Shown: piece by piece, positions 1,928 through 26,442 of the stretch | Position numbering within the stretch: position 1 is the first letter of the stretch | Layout: every line of letters begins with the position of its first letter | From: an uncultured Erysipelotrichaceae bacterium | GTDB lineage: Bacteria > Bacillota_I > Bacilli_A > Erysipelotrichales > Erysipelotrichaceae | DNA length: 32,000 nt | Reading direction: 5' to 3' | Assembly: GCA_942493105.1 (NCBI GenBank) | Contig: OW818668.1 | Location: 150,001 to 182,000, forward strand | Made by a program: the position numbers and the translations under genes | The notes under the pieces: generated by a model | Seen by the model: only the letters and a program-made list of their open reading frames with translations | Told to the model about the DNA's origin: nothing | Database searches by the model: none

Positions 1928-4573
1928 CTATTTTTGAATACCATATGCTTGTTTAAGAATGGTCTTAAGATCACTTACCAAAGGTAAACGTGGATTACAT
2001 GGGGTACACTGATCTTCATAAGCCAACATGGAAACCAGGTCCAGATTTGAATCAAATTGTTCTTGGGTAATGCCTTGGGCTTGTAGATTCATCGTGATCC
2101 CAATGCTTTGAGCTAAATCATGGCAAGCCTTCGCATACGACTCTACACCTTGCTCAAGCGTTTCAGCTGGTAAACCTAACATCTTTGCTAAGTTCTGATA
2201 CTTTTCATTGGCTTTGTAATAGTTATATTTTGGCCATGTTGCTGGCTTTGAAGGATGAGTTCCATTAAATCGAATCACAAGCGGCAGCAGTATCGCATTG
2301 GCTCGTGCATGAGGAACATGCCATGTTCCTCCAATCTTGTGAGCTAATGAATGATTAATTCCCAGGAAACTGTTGGCAAATGCCATGCCTGCTATCGTTG
2401 AAGCATTGTGCATTTTTTCTCTGGCTTCTGGATCATTTTTCCCTTCCTTTACAGCTCTGGGTAAATATTCAAAGACCATCTTGATGGCTTGTAGGCACAA
2501 CCCATCCGTAAAGTCTGAAGCTAAAGTTGATACATACGCTTCTGTGGCATGAGTCAAGACATCCATACCGGTATCCGCAGTGACAGACGCTGGAAGATTC
2601 ATGGTAAAGGTTGAATCTATGATTGCAACTGTCGGAGTCAATGAATAATCAGCTAAAGGATATTTCTTATTGACACGTTTATCGGTCAAGACTGCGAAAG
2701 GTGTTACTTCTGATCCTGTTCCTGAAGTCGTTGGAATACAAACCAGTTGCGTTTTCTTGCCAAGTTCAGGATACCTAAAGGCACGCTTACGTATGTCCAT
2801 GAATTTTTGCTTTAAATCATCAAAGTCAACTTCAGGGTGTTCATAAAACAGCCACATTCCTTTTGCCGCATCCATAGGTGAACCTCCACCTAATGCTATG
2901 ATCGTATCCGGCTTAAATGCATTCATCAATTCAAAGCCTTTTTTAACAGTATCCATGGATGGATCTGGTTCAACATCACAAAAGAGTTGAATCTGGACCT
3001 TATTACGTCTTTGATTAAGCTGATCTACAATTTTGGCATAATAACCAAGATCGACCATAGAGCGATCCGTAACCACAAACACTCTTTCGATCTCTTTCAT
3101 TTGTTGTAGATATTGAATAGAATTGCGTTCAAAGTATATTTTAGAAGGAATCTTGAACCATTGCATATTGTTGTTTCTGCGTCCTATACGCTTGATGTTG
3201 AGTAAATTGATGGCGGAGACATTGTTGGAAACAGAGTTATGACCATACGATCCACAACCCAGTGTTAGAGATGGAATAAAAGCATTGTAGACATTGCCGA
3301 TACCCCCAAAAGTAGCCGGAGAATTCCAAATGATACGAATGGCTTTACATGCTTTTCCAAATGAATCCGCAATATTCTTGTCTTGGGTATGAATGGCTGC
3401 AGAGTGACCAAGGCCATGGAATTCAACCATCTCTTTGCTGAAACGAAGACCTTCTTCGGTGGATTTAGAAACAATGAATGCCAGAACAGGGCTTAGTTTT
3501 TCTCGAGTACATGGTTCATTTTCACCAATTTCCTTAACAGGGACACCTAAGATGACAGTATTTTGAGGTACTTCAAAGCCGGCTTGCTTAGCGATCCAAT
3601 CTGCCGATTTCCCTACGATTGCTGCATTAAGTACTGCTCCTGAACAGTTTTGACCATAAGCATTCACTCCAAAGCAATATTTCTCTAGCTTTTCTTTTTC
3701 TTCTTTGTTAACGAAATAGACTCCATATTTCTTAAAGAGGGAAATCGCTTGATCATTGATTTCTTTGTCTATAATGACGCACTGTTCTGAAGCACAAATC
3801 ATCCCATTGTCAAATGCTTTAGACATGACAATGTCATTCACAGCTTGGCGAACATCACAGGTTTTTTCCATATAAGCAGGTACATTCCCAGCCCCTACAC
3901 CTAAAGCAGGTTTCCCACATGAGTAAGCTGCTTTGACCATGGCATTTCCTCCTGTAGCCAAGATTGTAGCGACATCTTTATGGTTCATTAAGAAGCCCGT
4001 TCCTTCTTTAGAAGGTTGTTGGATCCATTGGATGCAATGAAGCGGAGCTCCGGCTTTGACAGCCGCATCATAAACGATTTTTGCTGCACTTGCGGAACAC
4101 ATTTGGGCACCAGGATGAAAGGAAAATATAATTGGATTTCTTGTCTTTAGAGAAATCAAACATTTAAAAATAACCGTAGAAGTAGGATTGGTAATTGGCG
4201 TGATTCCTGCGATTACCCCAACAGGTTCTGCAATTTCAGTAATGCCTGTCGACTCATTTTCAGAAATAATGCCAACGGTTCTTAAATGCCGCATATCATT
4301 GACGACAAACTCACAGGCAAACAAATTCTTCGTCGCTTTGTCTTCGAAAACACCACGACCCGTTTCTTTAACTGCCAACATGGCTAATTCTCCATGTTGA
4401 TCAAGCGCTGCAACACTTGCTTTAGCAACGATATAATCGATTTCTTCTTGAGTTAACTGCATAAACCCATCTAGAGCAGTCATGCCCTTTTTGACCAGTT
4501 CATCAACATCATTTTCGATGGTTTGAAGCGGTGTTAATTCTAGTGATTGAGTGATCTCTTTCTTCATCATCAT
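1928..4573 (-). CDS. adhE: bifunctional acetaldehyde-CoA/alcohol dehydrogenase AdhE
   Basis: 881 aa with an N-terminal acylating aldehyde dehydrogenase half and a C-terminal Fe-ADH half (GGGSPMDAAK, His-rich metal site). There are three consecutive ATGs (4573/4570/4567). SD GGAGGA at 4575-4580 favours the 2nd or 3rd. Confidence 0.93.
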   Translation of the reverse strand: MMMKKEITQSLELTPLQTIENDVDELVKKGMTALDGFMQLTQEEIDYIVAKASVAALDQHGELAMLAVKETGRGVFEDKATKNLFACEFVVNDMRHLRTVGIISENESTGITEIAEPVGVIAGITPITNPTSTVIFKCLISLKTRNPIIFSFHPGAQMCSASAAKIVYDAAVKAGAPLHCIQWIQQPSKEGTGFLMNHKDVATILATGGNAMVKAAYSCGKPALGVGAGNVPAYMEKTCDVRQAVNDIVMSKAFDNGMICASEQCVIIDKEINDQAISLFKKYGVYFVNKEEKEKLEKYCFGVNAYGQNCSGAVLNAAIVGKSADWIAKQAGFEVPQNTVILGVPVKEIGENEPCTREKLSPVLAFIVSKSTEEGLRFSKEMVEFHGLGHSAAIHTQDKNIADSFGKACKAIRIIWNSPATFGGIGNVYNAFIPSLTLGCGSYGHNSVSNNVSAINLLNIKRIGRRNNNMQWFKIPSKIYFERNSIQYLQQMKEIERVFVVTDRSMVDLGYYAKIVDQLNQRRNKVQIQLFCDVEPDPSMDTVKKGFELMNAFKPDTIIALGGGSPMDAAKGMWLFYEHPEVDFDDLKQKFMDIRKRAFRYPELGKKTQLVCIPTTSGTGSEVTPFAVLTDKRVNKKYPLADYSLTPTVAIIDSTFTMNLPASVTADTGMDVLTHATEAYVSTLASDFTDGLCLQAIKMVFEYLPRAVKEGKNDPEAREKMHNASTIAGMAFANSFLGINHSLAHKIGGTWHVPHARANAILLPLVIRFNGTHPSKPATWPKYNYYKANEKYQNLAKMLGLPAETLEQGVESYAKACHDLAQSIGITMNLQAQGITQEQFDSNLDLVSMLAYEDQCTPCNPRLPLVSDLKTILKQAYGIQK

Positions 4574-4585
4574 GTCCTCCGTGAC

Positions 4586-4659
4586 TTGTTATTATTTTCA
4601 CATATCCACTATAACCTATGTAATATGCTTCGTCAAGTAATTTGTTATATTATTCACAA
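4586..4659 (-). promoter_or_regulatory. adhE sigma-A promoter flanked by two Rex operators
   Basis: On the minus strand: -35 TTGACG (4631-4636), 17-nt spacer, -10 TATAGT (4608-4613). Rex box 1 TTGTTATATTATTCACAA (4642-4659) lies just upstream of the -35. Rex box 2 TTGTTATTATTTTCACAT (4586-4603) covers the predicted +1. Both were compared with the Firmicute Rex consensus TTGTGAAWWWWTTCACAA. Confidence 0.65.
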
Positions 4660-4684
4660 GTAAACGGTTACATTATTTTGCATC

Positions 4685-4708
4685 AAAAAAGGAACCCCTT
4701 GAGTTCCT
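4685..4708 (-). terminator. rho-independent terminator after rimI
   Basis: The minus strand reads AGGAAC-TCAAGGG-GTTCCT followed by TTTTTT, immediately after the rimI stop. Confidence 0.7.
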
Positions 4709-4709
4709 C

Positions 4710-5144
4710 TTAACTGACTTGTTTTAACATCAATACCGCGTCTTCATAAGGATGAGAATAGTATTGTTTGCGAATCGTTACTTGTTTAAATCCAGCTTTT
4801 TCATAAAGATGAATAGCCTTCTTGTTGGATACCCTAACTTCCAATGTGATCACAGAAACGTGTTGTTGGCTTGCAAGCTGCAATGCATAATTTAGTAATG
4901 CTTTACCAAAGCCTTGGTTTTGAACCTGTGGGTCAACTCCAAGTGTCGTGATCTGCATCGCATCATCATTGATCCAGAGTCCTAGATATCCTTTAATGCC
5001 CTCTTCTTCGATGACAACATAATGGGCATATGGATTCTGGGTCAATTCGAAATGATAATTCTCTTTGGTCCATGGTGAACTAAACAGTTTAAGTTCTAAA
5101 TCCAAAATCAAATCTAGATCATCCTGGCCCATTTTTCTAATCAT
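4710..5144 (-). CDS. rimI: ribosomal-protein-alanine N-acetyltransferase RimI (GNAT)
   Basis: 144 aa. GNAT motif A is present (VDPQVQNQGFGKALL). It sits in the conserved tsaE-tsaB-rimI context, and a 4-nt overlap with tsaB suggests coupling. Confidence 0.85.
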   Translation of the reverse strand: MIRKMGQDDLDLILDLELKLFSSPWTKENYHFELTQNPYAHYVVIEEEGIKGYLGLWINDDAMQITTLGVDPQVQNQGFGKALLNYALQLASQQHVSVITLEVRVSNKKAIHLYEKAGFKQVTIRKQYYSHPYEDAVLMLKQVS

Positions 5145-5737
5145 TGACCATACCCATCCATTTCTTTAAGATAACGGGGAACTAAAGTATGGACATTATC
5201 GACTTTGATCCACTGAGATTTAAGTTCAACGAAATGTTGAACTAGATCGACTTCAATGGCTTTTTGACCTAAAAGCAGAGCATCTCCCACAAAGATTGCT
5301 TCAGGATCAAGATTATCTTTAGCCTCATCAATGGGTACCACAGTATCTTCATGAACTGGAATCCCATTTTTATAGTGACCCAGATAAACACGTTTAGCGC
5401 GTGCATCCATGACTACATAGACATTTGGATTCAAACCAGCCAGAAGCTGAAGACTGCTGATGGTGTAAAGTTGAATCCCTTGAATAAGTCCCAACACTTT
5501 CGCGACCGTCATAGAGATTCTTAGTCCCGTATAACTGCCTGGGCCATCGGTTAGAACCAAAGCTTGTAGTTCGCTTGGAATCCAACCTGCTTCTTTAAAT
5601 AAGCGATCGATCTCAACCATGATGGTTTCAGACTGTTGTTTGAAGGCAGGTTTTTGAATTGATGAAATGACTTGATCATCATCAATCAACGCAATGGTCA
5701 AATAGCTATGCGAGGTATCTAGTGCTAAAGTTTTCAT
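5141..5737 (-). CDS. tsaB: tRNA threonylcarbamoyladenosine biosynthesis protein TsaB (YeaZ)
   Basis: 198 aa. It has a YeaZ-like N-terminus (LALDTS...GPGSYTGLRI) and overlaps both tsaE and rimI. Confidence 0.85.
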   Translation of the reverse strand: MKTLALDTSHSYLTIALIDDDQVISSIQKPAFKQQSETIMVEIDRLFKEAGWIPSELQALVLTDGPGSYTGLRISMTVAKVLGLIQGIQLYTISSLQLLAGLNPNVYVVMDARAKRVYLGHYKNGIPVHEDTVVPIDEAKDNLDPEAIFVGDALLLGQKAIEVDLVQHFVELKSQWIKVDNVHTLVPRYLKEMDGYGQ

Positions 5738-6183
5738 TCTAGGTTCTCCAAAATATGCGAATATGTCGACCCATGGGAAATCAATTCGATCAAACGATCA
5801 TCTTCATCCAAACGGGTCATTTTGATTTCTAAGTAAGCTTTAGGTAAGAGTTCTTTAATGTAGTCTGGCCATTCAATGACACAGACGCCTTCAGTTCCAA
5901 TCAGTTCTTCAAAACCAAGATCTTGATGAAGTCCTTCTAAACGATACGCATCGATGTGGACCAGTTTTAATCTTCCAGTATAGATCTTCATGATGGTAAA
6001 AGTAGGGCTAGAGACCATTTTTTGGATGTCTAGACCTTTGGCTAATCCTTGAGTAAAAGTCGTCTTACCTGCGCCTAAATCACCGCTGAGGGTAATTACG
6101 GATTTGTCTTTAAGTTGTAACCCGATTTGTTGGGCTAAAGCTTTGGTTTCTTGGGGGGAATGGGTGATCATTTGTTTTTTCAT
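5734..6183 (-). CDS. tsaE: tRNA t6A biosynthesis ATPase TsaE (YjeE)
   Basis: 149 aa with Walker A GDLGAGKTTF and the SPTF motif. Confidence 0.88.
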   Translation of the reverse strand: MKKQMITHSPQETKALAQQIGLQLKDKSVITLSGDLGAGKTTFTQGLAKGLDIQKMVSSPTFTIMKIYTGRLKLVHIDAYRLEGLHQDLGFEELIGTEGVCVIEWPDYIKELLPKAYLEIKMTRLDEDDRLIELISHGSTYSHILENLE

Positions 6184-6194
6184 AGTGCTCTAAC

Positions 6195-6203
6195 ATTATA
6201 TCA
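6195..6203 (-). promoter_or_regulatory. extended -10 element (TGaTATAAT) for the tsaE operon
   Basis: The minus strand reads TTTGATATAATGTTAGAGCACTATG. Only 11 nt separate the -10 from the ATG and there is no SD, implying a very short leader or none. Confidence 0.4.
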
Positions 6204-6223
6204 AATTATTGATAAGACAAAAG

Positions 6224-6249
6224 AAAAACTCCCTTATGGGGAGTTTTTC
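6224..6249. terminator. terminator between the 5S rRNA and the tsaE operon
   Basis: ACTCCC-TTATG-GGGAGT hairpin flanked by an A-run and a T-run. On the minus strand it follows the 5S gene. Confidence 0.75.
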
Positions 6250-6250
6250 T

Positions 6251-6365
6251 AACTGGCAACGTGCTCTTTTCACTACGGCTAGCGTAGCTATATTTACCGC
6301 TGAAGTGCTTAACTTCTGTGTTCGGGATGGGAACAGGTGTGACCACTTCGCTATTGTCACCAGAT
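6251..6365 (-). rRNA. rrf: 5S ribosomal RNA
   Basis: The reverse complement reads TCTGGTGACAATAGCGAAGTGGTCACACCTGTTCCCATCCCGAACACAGAAGTTAAGC..., a canonical bacterial 5S. Ends are approximate. Confidence 0.9.
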
Positions 6366-6459
6366 CTGAGAGTTTATTCTCTCAAAACCGAATATCAGAT
6401 AGATAGTTGTTGTATTCAGGACGATCAATCTAAATAATTGATGTCTAAGTTATGGGTGT

Positions 6460-9351
<2,892 letters not shown>

Positions 9352-9548
9352 CTTGTTTTATTAACGTGTGTTTAACTGCTGTATTCTTGTTTTGCTTGAT
9401 TTACTGTTTATTTAAAACTGTTTGTTTCTCGTAATAAAAATCTTAGTTTTAGTTTTCAACTATTCAGAAAGATCATGTATTTATACATTTTTCTATCTGT
9501 TATTCGGTTTTCAAAGAACGAACTTCTTAAAATGAGAGCCGAGCTCTC

Positions 9549-9564
9549 AAAACTAAATAGGAAA
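9549..9564 (-). other. 3' arm of the 16S processing stalk (pairs with 11192-11207)
   Basis: AAAACTAAATAGGAAA at 9549-9564 is the exact reverse complement of 11192-11207. This gives a 16-bp helix bracketing the 16S gene, typical of RNase III processing stems. Confidence 0.6.
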
Positions 9565-9594
9565 TAGTGTCGATTTATGCAATTCTTTCTCCTT

Positions 9595-11120
<1,526 letters not shown>

Positions 11121-12559: not shown

Positions 12560-12675
12560 ACCTCCTGTTGTGTGAGGCGTAAGGATGTAAACTCCCTACG
12601 CTGGTTTTAACCAGATCAGGTGATAAGGGTCTGTCTCTAAACATCTCAGCCTTTTAGGCTCCCCTGTTCACGAGT
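12560..12675 (-). promoter_or_regulatory. TPP (THI-box) riboswitch with a probable SD-sequestering expression platform
   Basis: The minus strand reads GUGAACAGGGGAGCCUAAAAGGCUGAGAUGUUUAGAGACAGACCCUUAUCACCUGAUCUGGUUAAAACCAGCGUAGGGAGUUUAC. It has the hallmarks GGGGAGC, CUGAGA and ACCUGAUCUGG..ACCAGCGUAGGGA, with P1 GUGAAC/GUUUAC (12587-12671). Downstream, GCCUC could pair with the GAGGU of the SD. Confidence 0.88.
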
Positions 12676-18325: not shown

Positions 18326-20854
18326 TTATGCTTTCTTGTGTTTCTTGTAGAAGATAACTTTGGCGATCTCGGTAGTTAATATATATAGTATGGCAACCGC
18401 TACTAAGGAGAAAAGAATAGCAGGTTCTACAGGTGCAATATTTAATATATTCTGAACAGGTAAATATGGGAGTATTAATGTAAACAAAGCTACTCCAAGC
18501 GATGAGTACAGAAGTACTGGGGCTGGTTTGCTTTTGAAAAAAGGTTTTTGAGTTCGCATGACCAACAGCACCATCAATTCCGTTAAAATTGATAAAATCA
18601 ACCAACTACTTTGAAAAGTTTCCTCTTGCGCATGGAATCCCAAGAGTAAAACAGCAAAGGTCAAATAATCAAATACAGAACTGATCAATCCAAAAACAAA
18701 CATAAAATTACGAATGGAACAGATATCCCATCGACGAGGCTGATTTAGCATCTCTTGGTCGACAGTATCTCCTGCCAAAGTCATCGCGGGAAAGTCAGTG
18801 ACGAAATTGATCAGTAAGATTTGTTTGGGCAAAAGCGGGAGGAACGGCATAAACAAAGAAGCTCCCGCCATACTAAACATGTTACCAAAATTGGCACTGG
18901 TCGTAATATTGATGTATTTAAGGGTATTCGCAAAAGTAATGCGACCTAATTCTATTCCGCGTCGCAAAACATCAAGATTTTTTTCAAGCAAAACGAAATC
19001 AGCGGCTTCTTTCGCGACATCAACTGCCGTATTGACAGAAATACTGACATCAGCTGCGTGCAGAGCTGGGGCATCATTGATGCCGTCACCCATGTATCCA
19101 ACCACATGGTTTTTCTTTTTTAAAGCTAAGATAATACGTTCTTTCTGATTGGGATCCACTTCAGTAAATAGGTTGGTATTTTCAACAGCATTCCATAGTG
19201 CTTCATCGCTCATTTTGATCAATTCTGAGCCTGTCAGTGTATTGGTAATTGGTAAACCAATGATGTTTGCAGTATGCAGCGCAACCAGTTTGTTATCTCC
19301 TGTGATAATGCGCAATTGAACGCCCAATTTTTTAAGGTCGCTGATCGTTTGAATGACATCTTGTTTGGGTGGGTCATAAAAAAGCAAGAAACCGCTAAAG
19401 ATCATGGCTTGTTCATCAGCGATTGGATATTGTGACTTGGGGGGAACGATTTTACGGGCAATTCCTAAAACGCGATAGCCTTTATTGCTCCAATCTTCGA
19501 AATTTGATTGAATGTTTTCTTTGAATTTCGTTTCCAAAGGCAAAACATCTGATCCGATTTGGATCTTATCGCAAATTTCCATGATGCGACTTAAGGCCCC
19601 TTTTGTGATCATGGTACACTCATTGGCATCGTTGATTATGATACTCAGACGTTTACGTGTAAAATCGTATGGGATTTCATCTTGTTTGGTTATTTTGTCG
19701 ATGTCTAACGTTTTATGCGTAACAATGGCTTGATCTAGAGCATTTATCAAACCTGTCTGTAAATAGGAATTCAGATAAGCCAATCTAAAAACAAAATCGG
19801 ATGAGTTTCCTTCTGCATCCTTAACATCATCAAGCAAGACAACCCCTTCTGTAAGGGTGCCTGTTTTATCGGTACACAAGACATCCATACTGCCAAAATT
19901 CTCAATCGCTGTCAAATGCCGAACAATTACCCCTTCTTTCGCCATGGTTTTGGAACCTTTTGAAAGGGTGACATTGATAATGGCAGGTAATAATTGTGGC
20001 GTGATCCCTACAGCCAACGCTACTGAAAAGAGTAAAGCATCGATGGCTGGTTTATGAGCTAAGACGTTGATGGCAAAAACTGCCAAAGTCAAAATCAACA
20101 TAATTTGAGTCAATAAGTAACCAAATCGACGAATACCACGTTCAAAATCATTTTCTGGTGGTCGCAAGGTCAGCTTCTGTGCGATTTTTCCGAATTCGGT
20201 ATGTGCCCCAGTATTCACGACCAGCATCTTGGCACTTCCGCTAAAGACATTGGTACCAGTCAAAACGCAATTATTCCGCTCAGAAAGGGTCGACATTTCT
20301 AAAACAGGGGTTGGGTTTTTTTCAACCGGAAACGACTCTCCGGTCAAAATAGATTGATTAACAAAAAAGTCATCGCATTGAAGGATCAGTCCATCCGCAG
20401 GAATCAAACTACCTGCAGAAAGCAAGACGATATCACCAGGAACAACGAAACGTGTGGGAATCTGTTTGGGTTTACCTTCACGCAACACGGTAGATTGAAG
20501 CTGTATTCTGGAACGCAATTCTTCAATGGCATGATTGGCACTGTATTCTTGAATAAAACTCAAGACAACACTGGCTAAAACAATCGCCATGATGATGAGT
20601 GAATCTGTCAAATCTCCCGTCAATCCAGAAATCAATGTCGCAACGATCAAAATGATCATGATTGGATTTTTGAATTGGTTCAGAAAAAGAAAAATAGGAG
20701 CTGAGTTTCCCCTTGATTTGATTGAATTTTCGCCAAATTGTTTAATCCGAAGCGCAGACTCTGCTTCAGTTAATCCATCACGATTGGCTTTCAGGCTTTT
20801 AAGCGCTATTTCAGAAGATAAGCTCCAGTATTTGAGTTCCGAATCGTTAAGCAT
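18326..20854 (-). CDS. mgtA: magnesium-translocating P-type ATPase (MgtA/MgtB type)
   Basis: 842 aa with TGES, DKTGTLT, ITGDN and GDGINDAPAL. The MgtA-specific C-terminal TM block is present (TSANFGNMFSMAGASLFMPFLPLLPKQILLINF..D). SD GGAGGTG lies upstream. Confidence 0.88.
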   Translation of the reverse strand: MLNDSELKYWSLSSEIALKSLKANRDGLTEAESALRIKQFGENSIKSRGNSAPIFLFLNQFKNPIMIILIVATLISGLTGDLTDSLIIMAIVLASVVLSFIQEYSANHAIEELRSRIQLQSTVLREGKPKQIPTRFVVPGDIVLLSAGSLIPADGLILQCDDFFVNQSILTGESFPVEKNPTPVLEMSTLSERNNCVLTGTNVFSGSAKMLVVNTGAHTEFGKIAQKLTLRPPENDFERGIRRFGYLLTQIMLILTLAVFAINVLAHKPAIDALLFSVALAVGITPQLLPAIINVTLSKGSKTMAKEGVIVRHLTAIENFGSMDVLCTDKTGTLTEGVVLLDDVKDAEGNSSDFVFRLAYLNSYLQTGLINALDQAIVTHKTLDIDKITKQDEIPYDFTRKRLSIIINDANECTMITKGALSRIMEICDKIQIGSDVLPLETKFKENIQSNFEDWSNKGYRVLGIARKIVPPKSQYPIADEQAMIFSGFLLFYDPPKQDVIQTISDLKKLGVQLRIITGDNKLVALHTANIIGLPITNTLTGSELIKMSDEALWNAVENTNLFTEVDPNQKERIILALKKKNHVVGYMGDGINDAPALHAADVSISVNTAVDVAKEAADFVLLEKNLDVLRRGIELGRITFANTLKYINITTSANFGNMFSMAGASLFMPFLPLLPKQILLINFVTDFPAMTLAGDTVDQEMLNQPRRWDICSIRNFMFVFGLISSVFDYLTFAVLLLGFHAQEETFQSSWLILSILTELMVLLVMRTQKPFFKSKPAPVLLYSSLGVALFTLILPYLPVQNILNIAPVEPAILFSLVAVAILYILTTEIAKVIFYKKHKKA

Positions 20855-21121
20855 TCGCTTTCACCTCCAAAAACAATAATCTTACTTAAAAACTTTGTGA
20901 GCATAGTCGATGCTTGACTTGAATCCCTTTAAATGAAAAGCAGGATTTTACTGTGGGATAGAACCGATAAATCATCCTTATGATTAGATCAGCAACCTAA
21001 TTTTTAATTCAACTTCAATATCAGTTAATCTTGGTCAAATATCAATTTAACATAAGCTATTCTATTGTCATATTAACACTTTATTCGATGTACATATGAA
21101 TAATTGATTGATATTCTAAAC

Positions 21122-21147
21122 ATAAGAAAAGCCCATTTTCAGGGCTT
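21122..21147 (-). terminator. terminator downstream of tRNA-Gly(CCC)
   Basis: The minus strand reads AAGCCC-TGAAAAT-GGGCTT followed by TTCTTATG. Confidence 0.7.
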
Positions 21148-21157
21148 AAATCGACTC

Positions 21158-21231
21158 TGGAGCAGGTGAGGGGAATCGAACCCCCGTATCGACCTTGGGA
21201 AGGTCGCGTTCTACCATTGAACTACACCTGC
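21158..21231 (-). tRNA. tRNA-Gly (anticodon CCC)
   Basis: The minus strand reads GCAGGTGTAGTTCAATGGTAGAACGCGACCTTCCCAAGGTCGATACGGGGGTTCGATTCCCCTCACCTGCTCCA. It folds as a cloverleaf with acceptor GCAGGTG/CACCTGC, anticodon stem CGACC/GGTCG, loop TTCCCAA, discriminator U and an encoded CCA. Confidence 0.9.
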
Positions 21232-21242
21232 ATTGCCTATTT

Positions 21243-21272
21243 ATTTTACCACAACAAACAAAAAAACCTCAA
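21243..21272 (-). promoter_or_regulatory. putative dedicated promoter of tRNA-Gly(CCC)
   Basis: On the minus strand: TTGAGG, 18-nt spacer, and an extended -10 TGgTAAAAT ending about 11 nt before the tRNA 5' end. Confidence 0.45.
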
Positions 21273-21563
21273 CACAGATTTCTAATTAATAATGGAAAAG
21301 TGAAGGGACTTTCATTAGACCTTAAACTAACCTTCAATTGCAAACAATCTCCAATATTGTATCCCAAAATTTACTAATCTTTTGAGAACTTTTCGTTGGC
21401 ATATATAAGCAGAGCATTCTTACTTATCGAGAAGATCGCAAAGACATTCTACAAATAATTTCGCTTTTTAGACTTCTATCAAAAAAATGGAGTATCGCTA
21501 CAACTCACCTTTTATCATGTTCATAAATGTTTCGTCAAACTCGACAAGATAATCATGCAAAGA

Positions 21564-21848
21564 CTATCTTTCGGTTAACGTTAGTTTTAGATCCAATCCA
21601 TCAATGATCTTCATCAATGTATCAATTTTTGGGATATGCTTTTCTCTTTCTAATCTAGATATGGCTTGCTGTGAAACACTTGCTTTTTTCGCAAGTTCAC
21701 ATTGAGATATTTTTTTTAGTTTGCGAATTCTAACAATTTGCTCAATCAGTTCATACCCCTTTTTAACCTGCTCAAAGTTTGATTTGAATTCATCATTTTT
21801 TAGTTCTTCGTTTAGGAGTTCTTTTACATCAATTTTCTTGAATGGCAT
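21564..21848 (-). CDS. XRE-family HTH protein, HigA-like antitoxin
   Basis: 94 aa with HTH_3-like R.LKKISQCELAKKASVSQQAISRLEREKHIPKIDTL. SD AGAGGAA lies 7 nt upstream. It sits directly downstream of a decayed Gp49/HigB-like gene. Confidence 0.75.
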   Translation of the reverse strand: MPFKKIDVKELLNEELKNDEFKSNFEQVKKGYELIEQIVRIRKLKKISQCELAKKASVSQQAISRLEREKHIPKIDTLMKIIDGLDLKLTLTER

Positions 21849-21862
21849 TTAAATTTCCTCTT

Positions 21863-22184
21863 TCACTTTATTTCTTTGGCTCTTTTTATTGCCAGATTTT
21901 TATCTTTTAATTCTGCACTGTTCTTTTGCTTTTACATCCATGTAACAGATAGATATTTTCGTAATCTTTGAGCACATAGAATATCCTATTGAATTTACGG
22001 AATCTAATTTCCCATATCTTCCCTTCAAAATGCTTAATATCAAATTTATTCAAATCATCGATATTACCATTTTCAAGTTTATCCAAAATGTAGAATCCTT
22101 CTGCTTTTCTTCAGTTCTCAGTGTGTTTAGAAATTCTAGTATGAGTTCTTTTCCACCTGTGGTTTCATACGAATGCACATTCAT
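21863..22184 (-). pseudogene. Gp49-like (DUF891, RelE/HigB superfamily) toxin gene disrupted by two frameshifts
   Basis: Three successive minus-strand frames give MNVHSYETTGGKELILEFLNTLRTEEK / (RK)AEGFYILDKLENGNIDDLNKFDIKHFEGKIWEIRFRKFNRIFYVLKDYENIYLLHGCK / KQKNSAELKDKNLAIKRAKEIK*. Joined, they form a typical ~107-aa Gp49-like toxin. Both breaks lie at A4 runs (22105-22108, and 21930-21933 or 21924-21927). Confidence 0.7.
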
Positions 22185-22210
22185 GCATTGCTTCTCCTTT
22201 CTATTCCCAA

Positions 22211-22270
22211 GTGACATTAACAGTATAATACATCATAATTGATGTATTTCAAACATTTTATTAATGTCAC
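22211..22270 (-). promoter_or_regulatory. toxin-antitoxin promoter with nested palindromic operators
   Basis: On the minus strand: -35 TTGAAA (22247-22252), 16-nt spacer, -10 TATTAT (22225-22230). The inner palindrome ATACATCA-TAAT-TGATGTAT (22228-22247) fills the spacer. The outer 10-bp inverted repeat GTGACATTAA (22211-22220) / TTAATGTCAC (22261-22270) brackets the promoter. Confidence 0.55.
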
Positions 22271-22410
22271 CCGAATTATTTAGTATCTTCTCTTAAGATG
22301 TGTGCAAATATCAGTACATTAAAATATCAGAAAACACCAATGCTACATTTACATTGATCACTAACATTCCAACCAAGCAATATAACCTATTTCTTTATAG
22401 TCACTGCATT

Positions 22411-22431
22411 AAAAAAGCCCTATTAGGGCTT
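22411..22431 (-). terminator. terminator downstream of tRNA-Gly(GCC)
   Basis: The minus strand reads AAGCCC-TAATA-GGGCTT followed by TTTTTAATG. Confidence 0.7.
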
Positions 22432-22440
22432 AAACGACTC

Positions 22441-22514
22441 TGGAGCAGGTGAGGGGAATCGAACCCCCGTGTCGACCTTGGCAAGGTCGCGTTCTACCAT
22501 TGAACTACACCTGC
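22441..22514 (-). tRNA. tRNA-Gly (anticodon GCC)
   Basis: The minus strand reads GCAGGTGTAGTTCAATGGTAGAACGCGACCTTGCCAAGGTCGACACGGGGGTTCGATTCCCCTCACCTGCTCCA. It differs from the CCC copy at only 2 of 74 positions (anticodon position 34 and one variable-loop base). Confidence 0.92.
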
Positions 22515-22519
22515 AAAAA

Positions 22520-22595
22520 TGGCGGTCCAGACGGGATTCGAACCCGCGGTCTCCTCCGTGACAGGGAGGCATGTTAACCGCTACACCACTGGACC
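22520..22595 (-). tRNA. tRNA-Asp (anticodon GTC)
   Basis: The minus strand reads GGTCCAGTGGTGTAGCGGTTAACATGCCTCCCTGTCACGGAGGAGACCGCGGGTTCGAATCCCGTCTGGACCGCCA. The anticodon loop is CTGTCAC. Confidence 0.92.
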
Positions 22596-22617
22596 ACAAC
22601 ACAACACTGAACTAATA

Positions 22618-22710
22618 TGGCGCGGAAGGAGGGATTTGAACCCTCGCGTCAGTTTAATCCGACCTATGCCCTTAGCAGGGGCACCTCTTCAGCCGCTTGA
22701 GTACTTCCGC
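22618..22710 (-). tRNA. tRNA-Ser (anticodon GCT)
   Basis: The minus strand reads GCGGAAGTACTCAAGCGGCTGAAGAGGTGCCCCTGCTAAGGGCATAGGTCGGATTAAACTGACGCGAGGGTTCAAATCCCTCCTTCCGCGCCA. It has a long variable arm and the anticodon loop CTGCTAA. Confidence 0.92.
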
Positions 22711-22793: not shown

Positions 22794-22985
22794 TTACTCG
22801 ATGATAAAACCACATTCACGAATGGTCACTTTAGCCGTATAGACCGCATCAGCATCCCCTTCGATCACCACGATGTGATCTTTAGGTTTCACACTAAAGT
22901 TGAGTCTGGTTTCATCCAGTGCCGTTCTTATCTTTTCAGCTTGTTCTTCTGTATCTAAGTTTCTAACAAACAGGATGACTTTCAT
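22794..22985 (-). CDS. small hypothetical protein with an HMA/ferredoxin-like beta-alpha-beta-beta-alpha-beta pattern but no CxxC
   Basis: 63 aa. Its ATG overlaps the deoD stop (TAATG) and GGAGGA lies 5 nt upstream inside deoD. The alternating beta/alpha propensity follows the order seen in CopZ-like domains, but the metal-binding cysteines are absent. Confidence 0.55.
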   Translation of the reverse strand: MKVILFVRNLDTEEQAEKIRTALDETRLNFSVKPKDHIVVIEGDADAVYTAKVTIRECGFIIE

Positions 22986-23698
22986 TAATCCTCCAAGGCA
23001 ATCTGTAATGCGATTTCCATCATTTTCGTAAAGGAGTTTTGACGCTCTTCTGCGGTGGTCACTTCATGGGTCACCAAGGAATCTGAAATCGTCAATAAAC
23101 AAGCCGCTTCTTTCTTTAAGTAACGTGCATTGGCAAACAAGGCAAAGGATTCCATTTCAACACAGACCAAATGATGATCAAGGATGGCTTGTTTTAAAGC
23201 ATCCCCTTCTGCACGATAGAAGACATCTGATGAATGAATGACGCCTTTGATGATGGGGATATGAAGTCTGTTGGCGGCTTTCTCGAGTTGTTCATTTAAT
23301 CTAGGACTTGGATATTGAAGATCTTCATTGAATTTAAATGCTGTTTTTGCGAAGGAAGATTCACTAAAGGCAGCAGTCGCTAAGATCACATCATAGACTT
23401 TGGCTTCTGCTTGATAAGATCCGGCAGAACCAATACGAATGATACGCTCTACATCATATTGGCTATATAATTCATAGGAATAGATTCCAATCGAAGGCAT
23501 ACCCATTCCTGATCCCATAACTGAAATCGGATGACCTTTATAGGTTCCAGTATATCCAAACATGTTTCGGACATCATTGAATTTAACGACATTCTCAAGA
23601 TACGTCTCCGCTATTTTTTGGGCTCTTAAAGGATCTCCAGGCATTAAGACAGTTTTGGCGATCTGACCTTTTTGGGCGTTGTTGTGAGGGGTTGGCAT
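22985..23698 (-). CDS. deoD: purine nucleoside phosphorylase, DeoD type
   Basis: 237 aa. TPH......IA..VL.PGDPLRA..IA...L......N.VR.M.G.TG.YKG..ISVMG.GMG.PS..IY..EL is the hexameric PNP-1 family signature. Confidence 0.92.
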   Translation of the reverse strand: MPTPHNNAQKGQIAKTVLMPGDPLRAQKIAETYLENVVKFNDVRNMFGYTGTYKGHPISVMGSGMGMPSIGIYSYELYSQYDVERIIRIGSAGSYQAEAKVYDVILATAAFSESSFAKTAFKFNEDLQYPSPRLNEQLEKAANRLHIPIIKGVIHSSDVFYRAEGDALKQAILDHHLVCVEMESFALFANARYLKKEAACLLTISDSLVTHEVTTAEERQNSFTKMMEIALQIALED

Positions 23699-23768
23699 AG
23701 GCTTCTCCTTGGTTTTGCCTAAATTATATCATACCTGCCAAAGGTGTGAAATTAAGATGAATTGATGG

Positions 23769-23797
23769 TTGTTTATGGTCTGTTTAAAAGCTATAAT
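23769..23797 (+). promoter_or_regulatory. putative promoter of the Mg2+-related operon
   Basis: TTGTTT (23769-23774), 17-nt spacer, TATAAT (23792-23797). Confidence 0.5.
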
Positions 23798-23822
23798 GAA
23801 GGCAAATGAAAGGAGACTCTTT

Positions 23823-23909
23823 ATGGACAGTGACCCGCTTAGAACCCTGACTTGCTTAATAAAAAACACATCTGTTGAGAGGGCTCCTATCGCTCCTCTC
23901 AACAATTGA
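23823..23909 (+). CDS. candidate 28-codon leader peptide (uORF) MDSDPLRTLTCLIKNTSVERAPIAPLNN
   Basis: The ATG has SD AAAGGAG 7 nt upstream. The ORF runs through hairpin segments A and B, and its TGA (23907-23909) lies inside segment C, directly before the main-gene SD. It has no family assignment and is a prediction only. Confidence 0.4.
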   Translation: MDSDPLRTLTCLIKNTSVERAPIAPLNN

Positions 23910-23915
23910 GAGGAG
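23874..23915 (+). promoter_or_regulatory. three-segment alternative RNA structure (anti-sequestrator / sequestrator of the SD)
   Basis: A is GTTGAGAGG (23874-23882). B is CTCCTCTCAAC (23893-23903). C is TTGAGAGGAG (23906-23915) and contains the SD. A:B forms 9 perfect bp with a 12-nt loop. B:C forms 10 perfect bp with a 3-nt loop. The two pairings are mutually exclusive. Confidence 0.55.
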
Positions 23916-23922
23916 AAGAAAT

Positions 23923-25176
23923 GTGACCTTCAGCAATAACTTATTCTTCAGTAAGATTCTTCATAAAGATATTTTCAATTTGGACGATTCTGTCATTGGT
24001 AATCTCAATGATGTTTTAATTGATGCCAGTGGGATCAAACCTACCTTGACTGCCATAGAAGTCAAGAATGGGAAACGGATCTTCTACATCAACTGTGAGT
24101 CTCTTGAGATCTATCGTAAAAGAAACAATCAATTTACTTTAAAGTTGAATTCACAACAGATCACTTTCGCATCTCCACCTGATAATGCGATCTTTTTAGC
24201 CAAAGACATCCTAGATCGTCAAATCATCGACATCAACGGCCGTAAAGTAGAACGCGTCAATGATATACGAATTGGCTTGATCAATCAAAACTGGGCCGTC
24301 ATCGCAGCTGATATCGGTCTTAGGGGCCTCATACGTCGCTTAGGCATGGAGTATCTGGGAATAACGGTTTCCAGTTTGCTCAAGAAAGAATTCCACAACA
24401 AGCTCGTCGTATGGGACGATGTGCAGCCTTTGATTTCCAATCGGCATAATCTGCAATTGACCCAGCCTTTCACAAAATTGACCACCATGCATGCGGCAGA
24501 CATTGCCGATATCATTGAAGATCTAGATCGTCAAGCTCAGATCGAAGTCTTTAAAAGCTTAGACAATGAACAAGCAGCGGATGTCTTGGAAGAAGTGGAG
24601 TCGGATGTTCAGATTTCTTTGATTGAGCAATTACCTATTGAACAAGCCGCCGATGTCTTGGAGATGATGCCTCAAGATGAAGTCGCCGATATCTTAGAAG
24701 AAGTTGAAGATCTGACCGCTGAAAAACTGTTGATCGAAATGGAAGAACATATCTCAGAAGAAATCCGAGAACTGATGGAATACGATGATCGTACCGTTGG
24801 TTCTTTGATGATGACCGATATGATGTCTTTTGATAAAGATGAGAATGTTAAATCTGTTTTAAAACAACTTCGTCGTGAACAACCCGAAGAAGACATTACC
24901 AACTTCGTTTACGTAGTCGACCAGAAAAAACTGGTTGGGGTTATCTCTTTGATCGATCTGATCCATGCGAAGTCCAATCGTGTTTTACGTTCATTGATGA
25001 AGACAGAACTGGTTTTATTAAAAGATACCGATAAAATTGAATTTGCGATGGAACAGATGCAGAAATATAATTTGATGATTTTACCAGTCATCGATGAACA
25101 CGAAGAACTGATTGGGATCGTTTCTTTAATGGACATCGTTTATGAGTACATTCGTCTGAAGAAGGTGGATATATGA
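23923..25176 (+). CDS. cytosolic PRC-barrel + MgtE N-domain + CBS-pair protein (MgtE Mg2+-sensor module lacking the membrane pore)
   Basis: Start reassigned to the GTG at 23923 (MTFSNNLFF...), with GAGGAG 7 nt upstream. The track's TTG start at 23875 lies inside the leader hairpin. The acidic helical repeats HAADIADIIEDLD...AADVLEEVE...AADVLEMMPQDEVADILEEVE match MgtE_N. They are followed by two CBS motifs (...VGSLMMTDMMSF..., ...LVGVISLIDLI..., ...ILPVIDEHEELIGIVSLMDIV). No TM segments are present. Confidence 0.8.
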   Translation: MTFSNNLFFSKILHKDIFNLDDSVIGNLNDVLIDASGIKPTLTAIEVKNGKRIFYINCESLEIYRKRNNQFTLKLNSQQITFASPPDNAIFLAKDILDRQIIDINGRKVERVNDIRIGLINQNWAVIAADIGLRGLIRRLGMEYLGITVSSLLKKEFHNKLVVWDDVQPLISNRHNLQLTQPFTKLTTMHAADIADIIEDLDRQAQIEVFKSLDNEQAADVLEEVESDVQISLIEQLPIEQAADVLEMMPQDEVADILEEVEDLTAEKLLIEMEEHISEEIRELMEYDDRTVGSLMMTDMMSFDKDENVKSVLKQLRREQPEEDITNFVYVVDQKKLVGVISLIDLIHAKSNRVLRSLMKTELVLLKDTDKIEFAMEQMQKYNLMILPVIDEHEELIGIVSLMDIVYEYIRLKKVDI

Positions 25177-26411
25177 GAGAAAACATAAAGAAAAGATGGA
25201 CTAAACTGCTTTATATCTTAGGCATCATCGGACCAGGCATTATCACAGCCAATGCAGGCAATGATGCGGGTGGCATCGCTACTTACGCCAGTGTTGGGGC
25301 CAAATATGGTTACCGAATGATCTGGGGTTTAATGTTGATGACCATAGGTTTGGCGGTCGTCCAAGAAATGAATGCTCGGATGGGTGTGGTTACCGGAAAA
25401 GGCTTATCCGATCTGATTCGCGAAAAGTTTGGAGTCAAACTTACTTTGTTTGCGATGATCATTTTGTTTGTTGCTAATTTCGGAGTTGTTTTAGGTGATT
25501 TTGCAGGGGTTGCCGCATCGATGGAACTCTTTGGGGTTTCAAAATACATCTCTGTGCCTTTGGTTGCTTTATTCATATGGATCCTTGTCTCAAAAGGATC
25601 TTATGTCAAGGTTGAGAAGATCTTGATGTTGTTTACTTTTGTATTTTTCGGATATATCATTGCAGCCTTTATGGTCAAACCGGATTGGAATGAAGTCGCC
25701 ATCCAAGCCATTACCCCTACTTTTGATATGAATACTGGATTCATACTCGCATTCATCGGATTGGTTGGGACGACAATCACGCCCTATATGCAATTTTATC
25801 TTCAAGCATCCATCGTTGATAAAAAACTGAGTCTAAAAGACTATAAATATGAAAAACTGGATGTCTATATTGGTTCTGTTTGGGGCAACGTCGTTCAGTT
25901 CTTCATCATCGTGTGTACTGCAGCTACTTTATATGCGGTTGGGATCCAAGTCGACAGCGCCTCTGCGGCTGCTTTAGCGCTTAAACCTTTGGCCGGTGAA
26001 AATGCCTTTATTTTGTTTGGAGCAGGCTTATTTGGTGCCTCTGTCTTAGCGACCGCCATCATTCCTCTTTCCACGTCCTATGCGATCTGTGAAGCGTTTG
26101 GATGGGAAAGCGGTGTCGATTACAGTGTCAAAGAAGCACCTGCTTTCTTTGGGATCTATACCTTCATCATCGTGATCGCATCTTCTTTGGTTTTGATTCC
26201 TAATCTTAATCTGATGAGTTTGATCATCAGTACGCAACAGATTGCGGGGGTCTTAACTCCCATCATCTTGATTTTCATGATCATGTTGGTCAATGATAAA
26301 CGCATCATGGGCAAACACACCAACACTAAGATCCAAAACAGTATCGCACTGATCACAGTCACTTTGATCATTGCGATGACCTTGGCCTTGATCGTTTCTC
26401 AATTCCTATAA
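25173..26411 (+). CDS. Nramp-related transporter with a non-canonical metal site (candidate Mg2+ transporter, NRMT-like)
   Basis: 412 aa with about 11 TM segments and the Nramp/SLC11 fold. TM1 reads GNDAGG (D31-A-G-G, nt 25263-25274) where the canonical motif is DPGN. TM6 reads GTTITPY (T203, nt 25779-25781) where the canonical motif is A..MPH. An ATGA start/stop overlap joins it to the upstream gene. Confidence 0.75.
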   Translation: MRENIKKRWTKLLYILGIIGPGIITANAGNDAGGIATYASVGAKYGYRMIWGLMLMTIGLAVVQEMNARMGVVTGKGLSDLIREKFGVKLTLFAMIILFVANFGVVLGDFAGVAASMELFGVSKYISVPLVALFIWILVSKGSYVKVEKILMLFTFVFFGYIIAAFMVKPDWNEVAIQAITPTFDMNTGFILAFIGLVGTTITPYMQFYLQASIVDKKLSLKDYKYEKLDVYIGSVWGNVVQFFIIVCTAATLYAVGIQVDSASAAALALKPLAGENAFILFGAGLFGASVLATAIIPLSTSYAICEAFGWESGVDYSVKEAPAFFGIYTFIIVIASSLVLIPNLNLMSLIISTQQIAGVLTPIILIFMIMLVNDKRIMGKHTNTKIQNSIALITVTLIIAMTLALIVSQFL

Positions 26412-26414
26412 AAT

Positions 26415-26442
26415 AAAAGCGAGTCGCTGACTCGCTTTACTT
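26415..26442. terminator. bidirectional terminator between convergent genes
   Basis: AAGCGAGT-CGCTG-ACTCGCTT flanked by AAATAAA and TACTTTG. It overlaps the ddl stop. Confidence 0.7.

Follow-up and report, generated by a model that had tools for sequence, protein, structure and literature searches.

Nramp-related magnesium transporters (NRMTs), named NrmT by Shin et al. in 2014 (PLoS Genet; PMC4072509), form the fourth class of Mg2+ importers in bacteria; the structure of one member has been solved, and its transport can be assayed in vitro. This protein, EleNRMT of Eggerthella lenta (PDB 7QIA/7QIC), is a transporter of Mg2+ and Mn2+ that is not coupled to H+ and requires T224 for Mg2+ transport (PMC8806188). 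The published NRMT motif is DxxG in transmembrane helix 1 (TM1) and TxxA/T in TM6 (PMC8806188). Shin et al. report that most NrmT genes adjoin a gene for a homologue of MgtE's N-terminal cytoplasmic domain, that the NrmT operon of Clostridia is often under the control of an M-box riboswitch, and that the M-box-controlled operon of Clostridium acetobutylicum has the MgtE-like partner gene divided into two parts; what the partial MgtE gene does 'remains unknown' according to these authors (PMC4072509). We have analysed an operon of this kind in a 32,000-nucleotide (nt) stretch of DNA from an uncultured Erysipelotrichaceae bacterium (GenBank assembly GCA_942493105.1, contig OW818668.1, positions 150,001 to 182,000 of the forward strand), which is termed the window. 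It is a translationally coupled two-gene operon, predicted to serve Mg2+ uptake, in which the NRMT gene (gene 2) lies immediately downstream of the gene for an MgtE cytoplasmic-domain homologue (gene 1). The locus is another example of the known NRMT-partner operon and not a new system, so that the initial annotation, which knew of no description of such a two-gene arrangement, overlooked the neighbourhood reported in 2014. It differs from the operons described by Shin et al. in that it has no M-box, but instead has a conserved leader open reading frame (ORF) and a putative Shine-Dalgarno hairpin switch. The PRC barrels of gene 1, the leader ORF with its peptide and the membrane-anchored relatives of gene 1, all of which are described below, are not mentioned in that paper (PMC4072509).

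Gene 2 matches the Pfam Nramp family (PF01566) with an E value of 1.4e-94 over 356 of the 357 model positions, in agreement with the Nramp fold initially assigned to it. It can be aligned with EleNRMT over the full length (E 3.7e-115, 388 bits), with 45% identity in a MAFFT alignment. The scores are 103 bits against a canonical Nramp of the DPGN/MPH type (10ky), 69 bits or less against the DraNramp/MntH structures (MntH E ~1e-18), and 127.6 against the NCBIfam MntH model, which is below its cut-off of 430. These comparisons place gene 2 in the NRMT clade, an outgroup of SLC11, and not with MntH, as the initial annotation had suspected.

The metal site of gene 2 consists of N30-D31-A32-G33-G34 in TM1 and T200-T201-I202-T203-P204-Y205 in TM6, and the DAGG and TTITPY motifs initially noted at these positions are read here as well. 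D31, G34, T200 and Q355 are common to gene 2 and EleNRMT, with T200 being the equivalent of EleNRMT T224, and the two proteins share the TM1 D-x-x-G motif, the TM6 T-x-x-A/T motif and the TM10 Gln. Both also lack the two helix 6b histidines of the H+ pathway, the sequence of this region being TPYMQFYL in gene 2 and APWMMFFN in EleNRMT, as compared with MPHxxxxH in canonical Nramps. Gene 2 differs from EleNRMT in that Ala at the Met position is replaced by Thr and Trp after Pro is replaced by Tyr, but both replacements are within the published motif. The Thr had initially been regarded as a departure from the NRMTs. It is not unusual, because DxxG-TxxA/T already covers TTIT, and among 80 species-level genomes TTITPY is found in 35, TTIAPW in 30, TTITPW in nine and TTISPY in three. 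A new selectivity class marked by this Thr was therefore considered and rejected, since Thr is one half of the published consensus.

Gene 1 starts with GTG, which is located 8 nt 3' of a GAGGAG Shine-Dalgarno sequence, and ends with TGA at 25174-25176. The same start is called in four syntenic contigs, and nearly all homologues of gene 1 are 416-420 residues long. The gene 1 stop codon overlaps the gene 2 ATG (25173-25175) within the sequence gatatATGAgag, so that the ATGA overlap claimed initially is directly readable at 25173-25176, and AGGTGG, the Shine-Dalgarno sequence of gene 2, is located within gene 1. In Pfam, gene 1 matches PRC (30.1 bits, cut-off 21.2), MgtE_N (3e-23) and two CBS domains (6e-19). 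A second PRC barrel gives only a weak sequence match (Pfam PRC, E 0.083). The MgtE membrane domain (PF01769), which contains the pore Asp (D432), gives no match to gene 1 in Pfam, and gene 1 stops after the CBS pair. Likewise, the TIGR00400 mgtE model gives a score of 123 (cut-off 232.75) and is aligned at positions 25-248 of 450 only, which correspond to the cytosolic half. The domain composition initially proposed for gene 1, one or more PRC regions, MgtE_N and a CBS pair with the pore domain absent, is thus found again by Pfam.

An AlphaFold2 model of gene 1, which was built from 45 homologues and has a mean predicted local distance difference test score of 82.7, has beta-rich domains at residues 1-80 and 98-170, followed by the N domain, which is helical (183-286), and by the CBS pair (292-413). 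Residues 183-413 superpose on MgtE cytosolic-domain structures in Foldseek. At E values no higher than 1e-30, the gene 1 family has 429 representatives in a library clustered at 50% identity, and nearly all of these match from end to end, the PRC region included. Gene 1 is a soluble protein with the order PRC, probably a second PRC, MgtE_N, CBS and CBS, and is a pore-less, MgtE-like predicted Mg2+ sensor that is the partner of the NRMT.

To compare the Mg2+ sites, gene 1 was aligned with Thermus thermophilus MgtE (PDB 2YVX/2ZY9), and the numbering was checked against the residue types. The N domain and the CBS pair of gene 1 are homologous to those of MgtE, and the MgtE ligands E59 (Mg7), D91 (Mg4), D95 (Mg6) and D247 (Mg4) correspond to D220, D252, D256 and D404 of gene 1, respectively. 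D252, D256 and D404 are invariant among 45 gene 1 homologues, and position 220 is either Asp or Glu. Gene 1 therefore keeps equivalents of the ligands at Mg4, Mg6 and Mg7, and in MgtE a mutation at any of these sites blocks Mg2+-dependent closure (PMC5882242). Unlike MgtE, gene 1 has no pore domain, has about 180 additional N-terminal residues that form PRC-type barrels, and has almost no plug helix, with the Mg2 and Mg3 sites being lost together with this helix. Both Mg5 ligands, D226 and D250 of MgtE, are replaced by N383 and Y407. Gene 1 had been described as the whole cytosolic sensing and gating part of MgtE, but this description is too generous, because most of the plug helix and both Mg5 ligands are missing. 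The N-domain/CBS clamp of gene 1 is plausibly intact, whereas the element that relays the signal to the pore in MgtE is not. The loss of most of the plug helix and of the Mg5 ligands implies that any coupling of gene 1 must use a different surface.

A census of gene neighbourhoods was based on one genome per species and yielded at least 593 NRMT-encoding stretches, the best 80 of which were kept. The sample is skewed to relatives of the query, because the peptides GTTITPYM and I[CT]EAFGWE were used for retrieval. A full-length gene 1 homologue is located directly upstream of the NRMT gene on the same strand in 70 of the 80 loci, and about 2.7 kb downstream, again on that strand, in four (Ktedonobacterales/Chloroflexia). 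Two loci have too little upstream sequence for judging, so that a pore-less MgtE module accompanies the NRMT in 74 of the 78 assessable loci, which is the kind of neighbourhood count called for by the initial annotation. In about 48 of the 70 upstream pairs the estimated gap does not exceed 45 nt, the start codons having been picked heuristically. ATGA overlaps are seen again in L001, L003, L006, L007 and L017, and the pair of the window is syntenic with those of L017 and L087-L090. The paired loci come from more than ten phyla and include Bacillota, Nitrospirota, Syntrophales, Chloroflexota, Actinomycetota, Acidobacteriota, Omnitrophota, Margulisiibacteriota, Saganbacteria and others. In Eggerthellaceae (L081-L086, genes at 3644-4996 and 5001-6296), a 450-residue PRC/MgtE_N/CBS gene ends 3-4 nt before an NRMT gene whose product is 90-92% identical to EleNRMT. 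The structural paper treats the transporter alone and does not discuss this upstream partner of its closest relatives (PMC8806188). An apparent in-frame fusion of the partner and the NRMT in L063 was rejected as an artefact of ORF extension in high-GC DNA, since the partner stop codon is located about 13 nt before the NRMT start.

The M-box (RF00380) was searched for in 35 related loci with Rfam and is found in 12 of them. It precedes the two-gene operon in ten (L002, L005, L006, L010, L014, L015, L016, L034, L079 and L080) and is located directly before a partner-less NRMT gene in two Clostridium species (L012:5650-5815 and L013:5766-5929). The NRMTs of L002, L005 and L006 are 70% identical to gene 2. 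From the homology of gene 2 and from the M-box control of the operons with these 70%-identical NRMTs, gene 2 is predicted to transport Mg2+. The M-box that L012 and L013 have in place of a partner gene hints that the riboswitch and the protein partner may to some extent stand in for each other. The window contains no M-box at the gathering threshold, nor at E values up to 10 in the region 23600-24050, and none is detected by Rfam in its close relatives. When the gene 1 leader is searched with permissive Rfam settings, only chance matches of the snoRNA-like type are obtained.

The gene 1 leader of the window contains a putative promoter (Table 1), the TATAAT -10 element of which is invariant among six related leaders. 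A consensus promoter scan missed it, because its -35 element agrees with the consensus at three of six positions only. The promoter is followed by a short leader ORF, the frame of which is open at 27-28 codons, with the MD(S/I)(D/E)P start kept, in all six close relatives. The codon for Ser3 is AGT in some relatives and TCA in another. This synonymous change across codon families suggests that the leader ORF is under selection at the protein level. More distant leaders share only the N-terminus, which is MDIGP, MDLDP and MDIDP in L003, L007 and L008, where there is no M-box, MEGGP in L011, and MEGDP (L006) or MESGP (L015 and L016) in leaders that also contain an M-box. Of 69 operon leaders, 12 contain an ORF that starts with M-[DE]-x-[DEG]-P, as compared with 28 of 5000 random windows (0.56%).

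Three arms, A, B and C, are located in the region from the 3' part of the leader ORF to the gene 1 Shine-Dalgarno sequence, and B can pair with either A or C. The minimum-free-energy fold contains a 10-bp B:C hairpin (z = -2.75). Close relatives keep the arms, one compensatory pair being seen in L090, and the same layout with other sequences is found in L003 and L008 (GCGGGGCG / CCCCGCC / GGAGGGG) and in L007 (GTTAGGGTC / GTCCCTAAC / TTAGGAG). When the whole leader ORF is translated, arm A would be covered by the ribosome, B would pair with C and gene 1 would be turned off. At low Mg2+, translation of the leader may be aborted early, in which case A would pair with B and the gene 1 Shine-Dalgarno sequence would be free. 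Termination-reinitiation coupling is an alternative reading, because the leader stop codon is located within arm C in the clade of the window.

The closest described counterpart of this leader is MgtL, the leader peptide of enterobacterial mgtA, in which EPDP after Met destabilises the ribosome, and does so more at low Mg2+ (Chadani et al., bioRxiv 10.1101/2021.02.02.429294). In both cases a short leader ORF precedes the gene of an Mg2+ importer and is tied to alternative RNA pairings, which in the window are predicted ones, and acidic and proline residues directly follow Met (MDSDP in the window, MEPDP in MgtL). The leader of the window differs from MgtL in that it comes from a different phylum, with no sequence homology demonstrated. 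The motif is weaker, with Asp, Glu or Pro at three of the four positions after Met as compared with four of four in MgtL, and the predicted output is Shine-Dalgarno sequestration, whereas that of MgtL is transcription attenuation. A candidate MgtL-like leader ORF that is combined with a predicted ribosome-binding-site hairpin switch appears to be undescribed so far.

Approximately 15 of the top 150 representatives of the gene 1 family are longer than gene 1 (585-622 residues). Five of the six long forms scanned with Pfam have PF01769 added to the PRC/N/CBS module. The long forms (P0264-P0390; L092:611-2410, L034:4063-5976, L079:4078-5976 and L080:3888-5978) differ in their surroundings. P0286 (L092) is followed after 17 nt by the gene of an NRMT with 53% identity to gene 2, and P0264 and P0293 (loci L091 and L093) do not adjoin an NRMT gene. 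In L034, L079 and L080, partners of about 630-700 residues with a degenerate hydrophobic tail are located upstream of the NRMT gene and behind the M-box. According to a MAFFT alignment with Thermus MgtE, E255, E258 and D259, the acids of the plug helix, are present in the long forms, but the pore Asp D432 is kept in only one of 18, the others having Thr, Ser, Ala, Gly, Leu or Met, a count that depends on the accuracy of the TM5 alignment. By sequence identity, the long forms mostly cluster together, yet are interleaved with short forms. These results suggest that the long forms are pore-dead, membrane-anchored intermediates, and that the gene 1 family may have arisen from an MgtE that lost its pore chemistry first and then its membrane domain more than once. 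Such membrane-anchored relatives, most of which lack the pore Asp, appear to be undescribed so far.

How might the two proteins work together? Gene 2 would import partly hydrated Mg2+, and also Mn2+, along the membrane potential without H+ coupling. Because an NRMT is uncoupled, Mg2+ would accumulate without limit unless the expression or the activity of the transporter is restrained. Gene 1, a probable descendant of an MgtE-type channel that keeps two beta-barrels at the N-terminus together with its acidic N domain and CBS pair, may sense cytosolic Mg2+ through the sites that bridge the N domain and the CBS pair (the Mg4, Mg6 and Mg7 equivalents). At high cytosolic Mg2+, these domains would clamp, and the compact state would bind to the cytoplasmic face of the NRMT and inhibit it. 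At low Mg2+, gene 1 would let go of the NRMT. Gene 1 would then supply the feedback brake that is otherwise missing from an uncoupled uniporter. We consider Mg2+-dependent feedback inhibition of the NRMT to be the most likely role of gene 1, with about an even chance of being correct. Such a role would agree with the conservation of gene order and translational coupling, with the Mg2+ ligands that gene 1 keeps and with the riboswitches of related operons.

Several observations weigh against this role. The Mg5 ligands are lost, and the C-terminus of gene 1 is located only 13 residues past D404, so that most of the helix that transmits the signal in MgtE is absent. In four of the 80 NRMT loci (L004, L009, L012 and L013) a partner is absent within 6 kb, and the partner is dispensable in some lineages, because L012 and L013 carry an M-box directly upstream instead. 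No natural fusion of the module with an NRMT is found among the 80 loci, and a physical interaction between gene 1 and the NRMT is shown neither by this analysis nor in the literature. The sole published co-expression test, in which the Acidobacterium capsulatum pair was produced in Mg2+-transport-deficient B. subtilis, was without effect, as the partner 'did not further improve rescue' (PMC4072509). This test sought improved rescue, however, which is an outcome that no inhibitor would give. The activity of EleNRMT and CabNrmT without a partner, together with the absence of a gain in rescue, fits an inhibitor rather than an essential subunit.

Among the other explanations, the one that survives best, although it is unlikely, is that gene 1 acts independently of the NRMT, as a sensor of cytosolic Mg2+ or adenine nucleotides with another target, and shares the operon because both proteins are needed at low Mg2+. 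The PRC-MgtE_N-CBS module is indeed present in membrane proteins of about 600 residues that are encoded away from an NRMT gene (L091 and L093). PRC barrels are found in proteins with varied partners, and those of gene 1 might, like those of RimM, bind to partners, ribosomal or other. Nevertheless, the order, strand and adjacency of the two genes are fixed in 70 of the 80 loci, with overlapping stop and start codons, and co-regulation alone is hard to credit as the cause.

A second explanation, which we regard as quite improbable, is that the system is chiefly an Mn2+ importer and that gene 1 uses cytosolic Mg2+ as a cue to adjust the entry of Mn2+. The physiological substrate is uncertain, because the partnered A. 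capsulatum homologue is mainly an Mn2+ transporter, which rescues an Mn2+-uptake mutant well (fully), but an Mg2+ mutant at millimolar Mg2+ only (PMC4072509). EleNRMT also carries Mn2+ (PMC8806188), the window encodes MgtA for Mg2+, and the operon is not preceded by an M-box. On the other hand, the M-box controls the operons of L002, L005 and L006 with their closely related NRMTs, the Thr required for Mg2+ transport is conserved in gene 2, and the leader ORF resembles the Mg2+-sensing MgtL. That gene 1 serves as a positive subunit or as one that sets the selectivity, required for the activity, the stability or the Mg2+-over-Mn2+ preference of the NRMT in the native host, would agree with the tight translational coupling, with the near-universal co-occurrence and with the rather poor stability of EleNRMT purified alone in detergent (PMC8806188), but is improbable to a similar degree, since EleNRMT by itself moves Mg2+ and Mn2+ in liposomes (PMC8806188), CabNrmT alone rescues Mg2+-transport-deficient B. 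subtilis, the A. capsulatum pair is no better than its transporter (PMC4072509), and partner-less NRMTs exist (L012 and L013).

Feedback inhibition by gene 1 can be extended to the whole family in a proposal that we make only tentatively and that is, on balance, doubtful. The soluble and anchored PRC-MgtE_N-CBS proteins would represent a pore-dead MgtE lineage that has turned into a dedicated Mg2+-sensing gate of NRMTs, forming a two-protein, feedback-inhibited machine for Mg2+ uptake whose parts stem from two transporter families that are unrelated, and which in Erysipelotrichaceae and some Clostridia would additionally be under the control of an MgtL-like leader that senses Mg2+ by way of ribosome stability and flips a Shine-Dalgarno hairpin.

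The features of the operon are summarised in Table 1.

Table 1. Positions of the operon features in the window
Feature	Position	Strand	Basis
Putative sigma-70-type promoter: TTGTTT, 17-nt spacer, TATAAT	23769..23797	+	Read from the sequence; inferred
Leader ORF, 28 codons, MDSDPLRTLTCLIKNTSVERAPIAPLNN followed by a stop codon; Shine-Dalgarno AAAGGAG at 23809-23815	23823..23909	+	Conserved in relatives
Arm A, GTTGAGAGG	23874-23882	+	Within the leader ORF, in its 3' part
Arm B, CTCCTCTCAA	23893-23902	+	Can pair with A or C
Arm C, TTGAGAGGAG	23906-23915	+	Includes the gene 1 Shine-Dalgarno sequence
Gene 1, 417-residue soluble protein	23923..25176	+	Pfam, NCBIfam, AlphaFold2, Foldseek
PRC-barrel domain 1, residues 7-65	23941..24117	+	Pfam PF05239; beta strands in the AlphaFold2 model
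Second beta-barrel, residues ~98-170, probably a second PRC	24214..24432	+	AlphaFold2 strands 101-131 and 160-169; PRC E 0.083
MgtE_N helical domain, residues 189-289, bearing the acidic ligands D220, D252 and D256	24487..24789	+	Pfam 3e-23; alignment with Thermus MgtE
CBS pair, residues 292-413; D404 equivalent to D247; N383/Y407 in place of D226/D250	24796..25161	+	Pfam, alignment, AlphaFold2, Foldseek
Gene 2, Nramp-related Mg2+ transporter (NRMT), 412 residues	25173..26411	+	Pfam, EleNRMT match, ATGA overlap
TM1 metal-site motif D31-A32-G33-G34 (DxxG)	25263..25274	+	Alignment; motif from PMC8806188
TM6 metal-site motif T200-T201-I202-T203-P204-Y205 (TxxT)	25770..25787	+	Alignment; T200 equivalent to EleNRMT T224
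GC-rich hairpin between convergent gene 2 and ddl; likely bidirectional terminator ending the operon	26416..26438		Sequence scan

Elsewhere in the window, the MgtA P-type Mg2+ ATPase that had been noted initially is encoded at 18326-20854 (-) and scores 770.6 bits against TIGR01524 (cut-off 610.75). Its leader (20855-21160) was checked and contains neither an M-box nor a leader ORF of the MDxDP type. Four tRNA genes are located at 21161-22710 (-), and related Erysipelotrichaceae contigs show synteny for the tRNA cluster and for a purine nucleoside phosphorylase gene, both of which lie upstream of the operon. A 63-residue ORF at 22794-22985 (-) shares a single base with the end of the purine nucleoside phosphorylase gene. 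All four syntenic contigs (L087-L090) have it annotated as a gene of 62-63 residues, and it has no Pfam match. The window also contains a complete rRNA operon (5S, 23S and 16S) at 6251-11119 (-), a thiamine pyrophosphate (TPP) riboswitch at 12576-12675 (-), and the gene of an AdhE-type bifunctional aldehyde/alcohol dehydrogenase of 881 residues (Aldedh and Fe-ADH domains) at 1928-4573 (-).

The presence of the partner gene beside the closest relatives of EleNRMT makes co-reconstitution a direct experiment, and the retained Mg2+ sites of gene 1 are identified targets that are worth mutating. If the partner is a gate, a regulatory module would have moved from a channel to a carrier of the LeuT fold. 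The leader ORF, if it is MgtL-like, would carry Mg2+ sensing by a nascent peptide beyond the enterobacteria.

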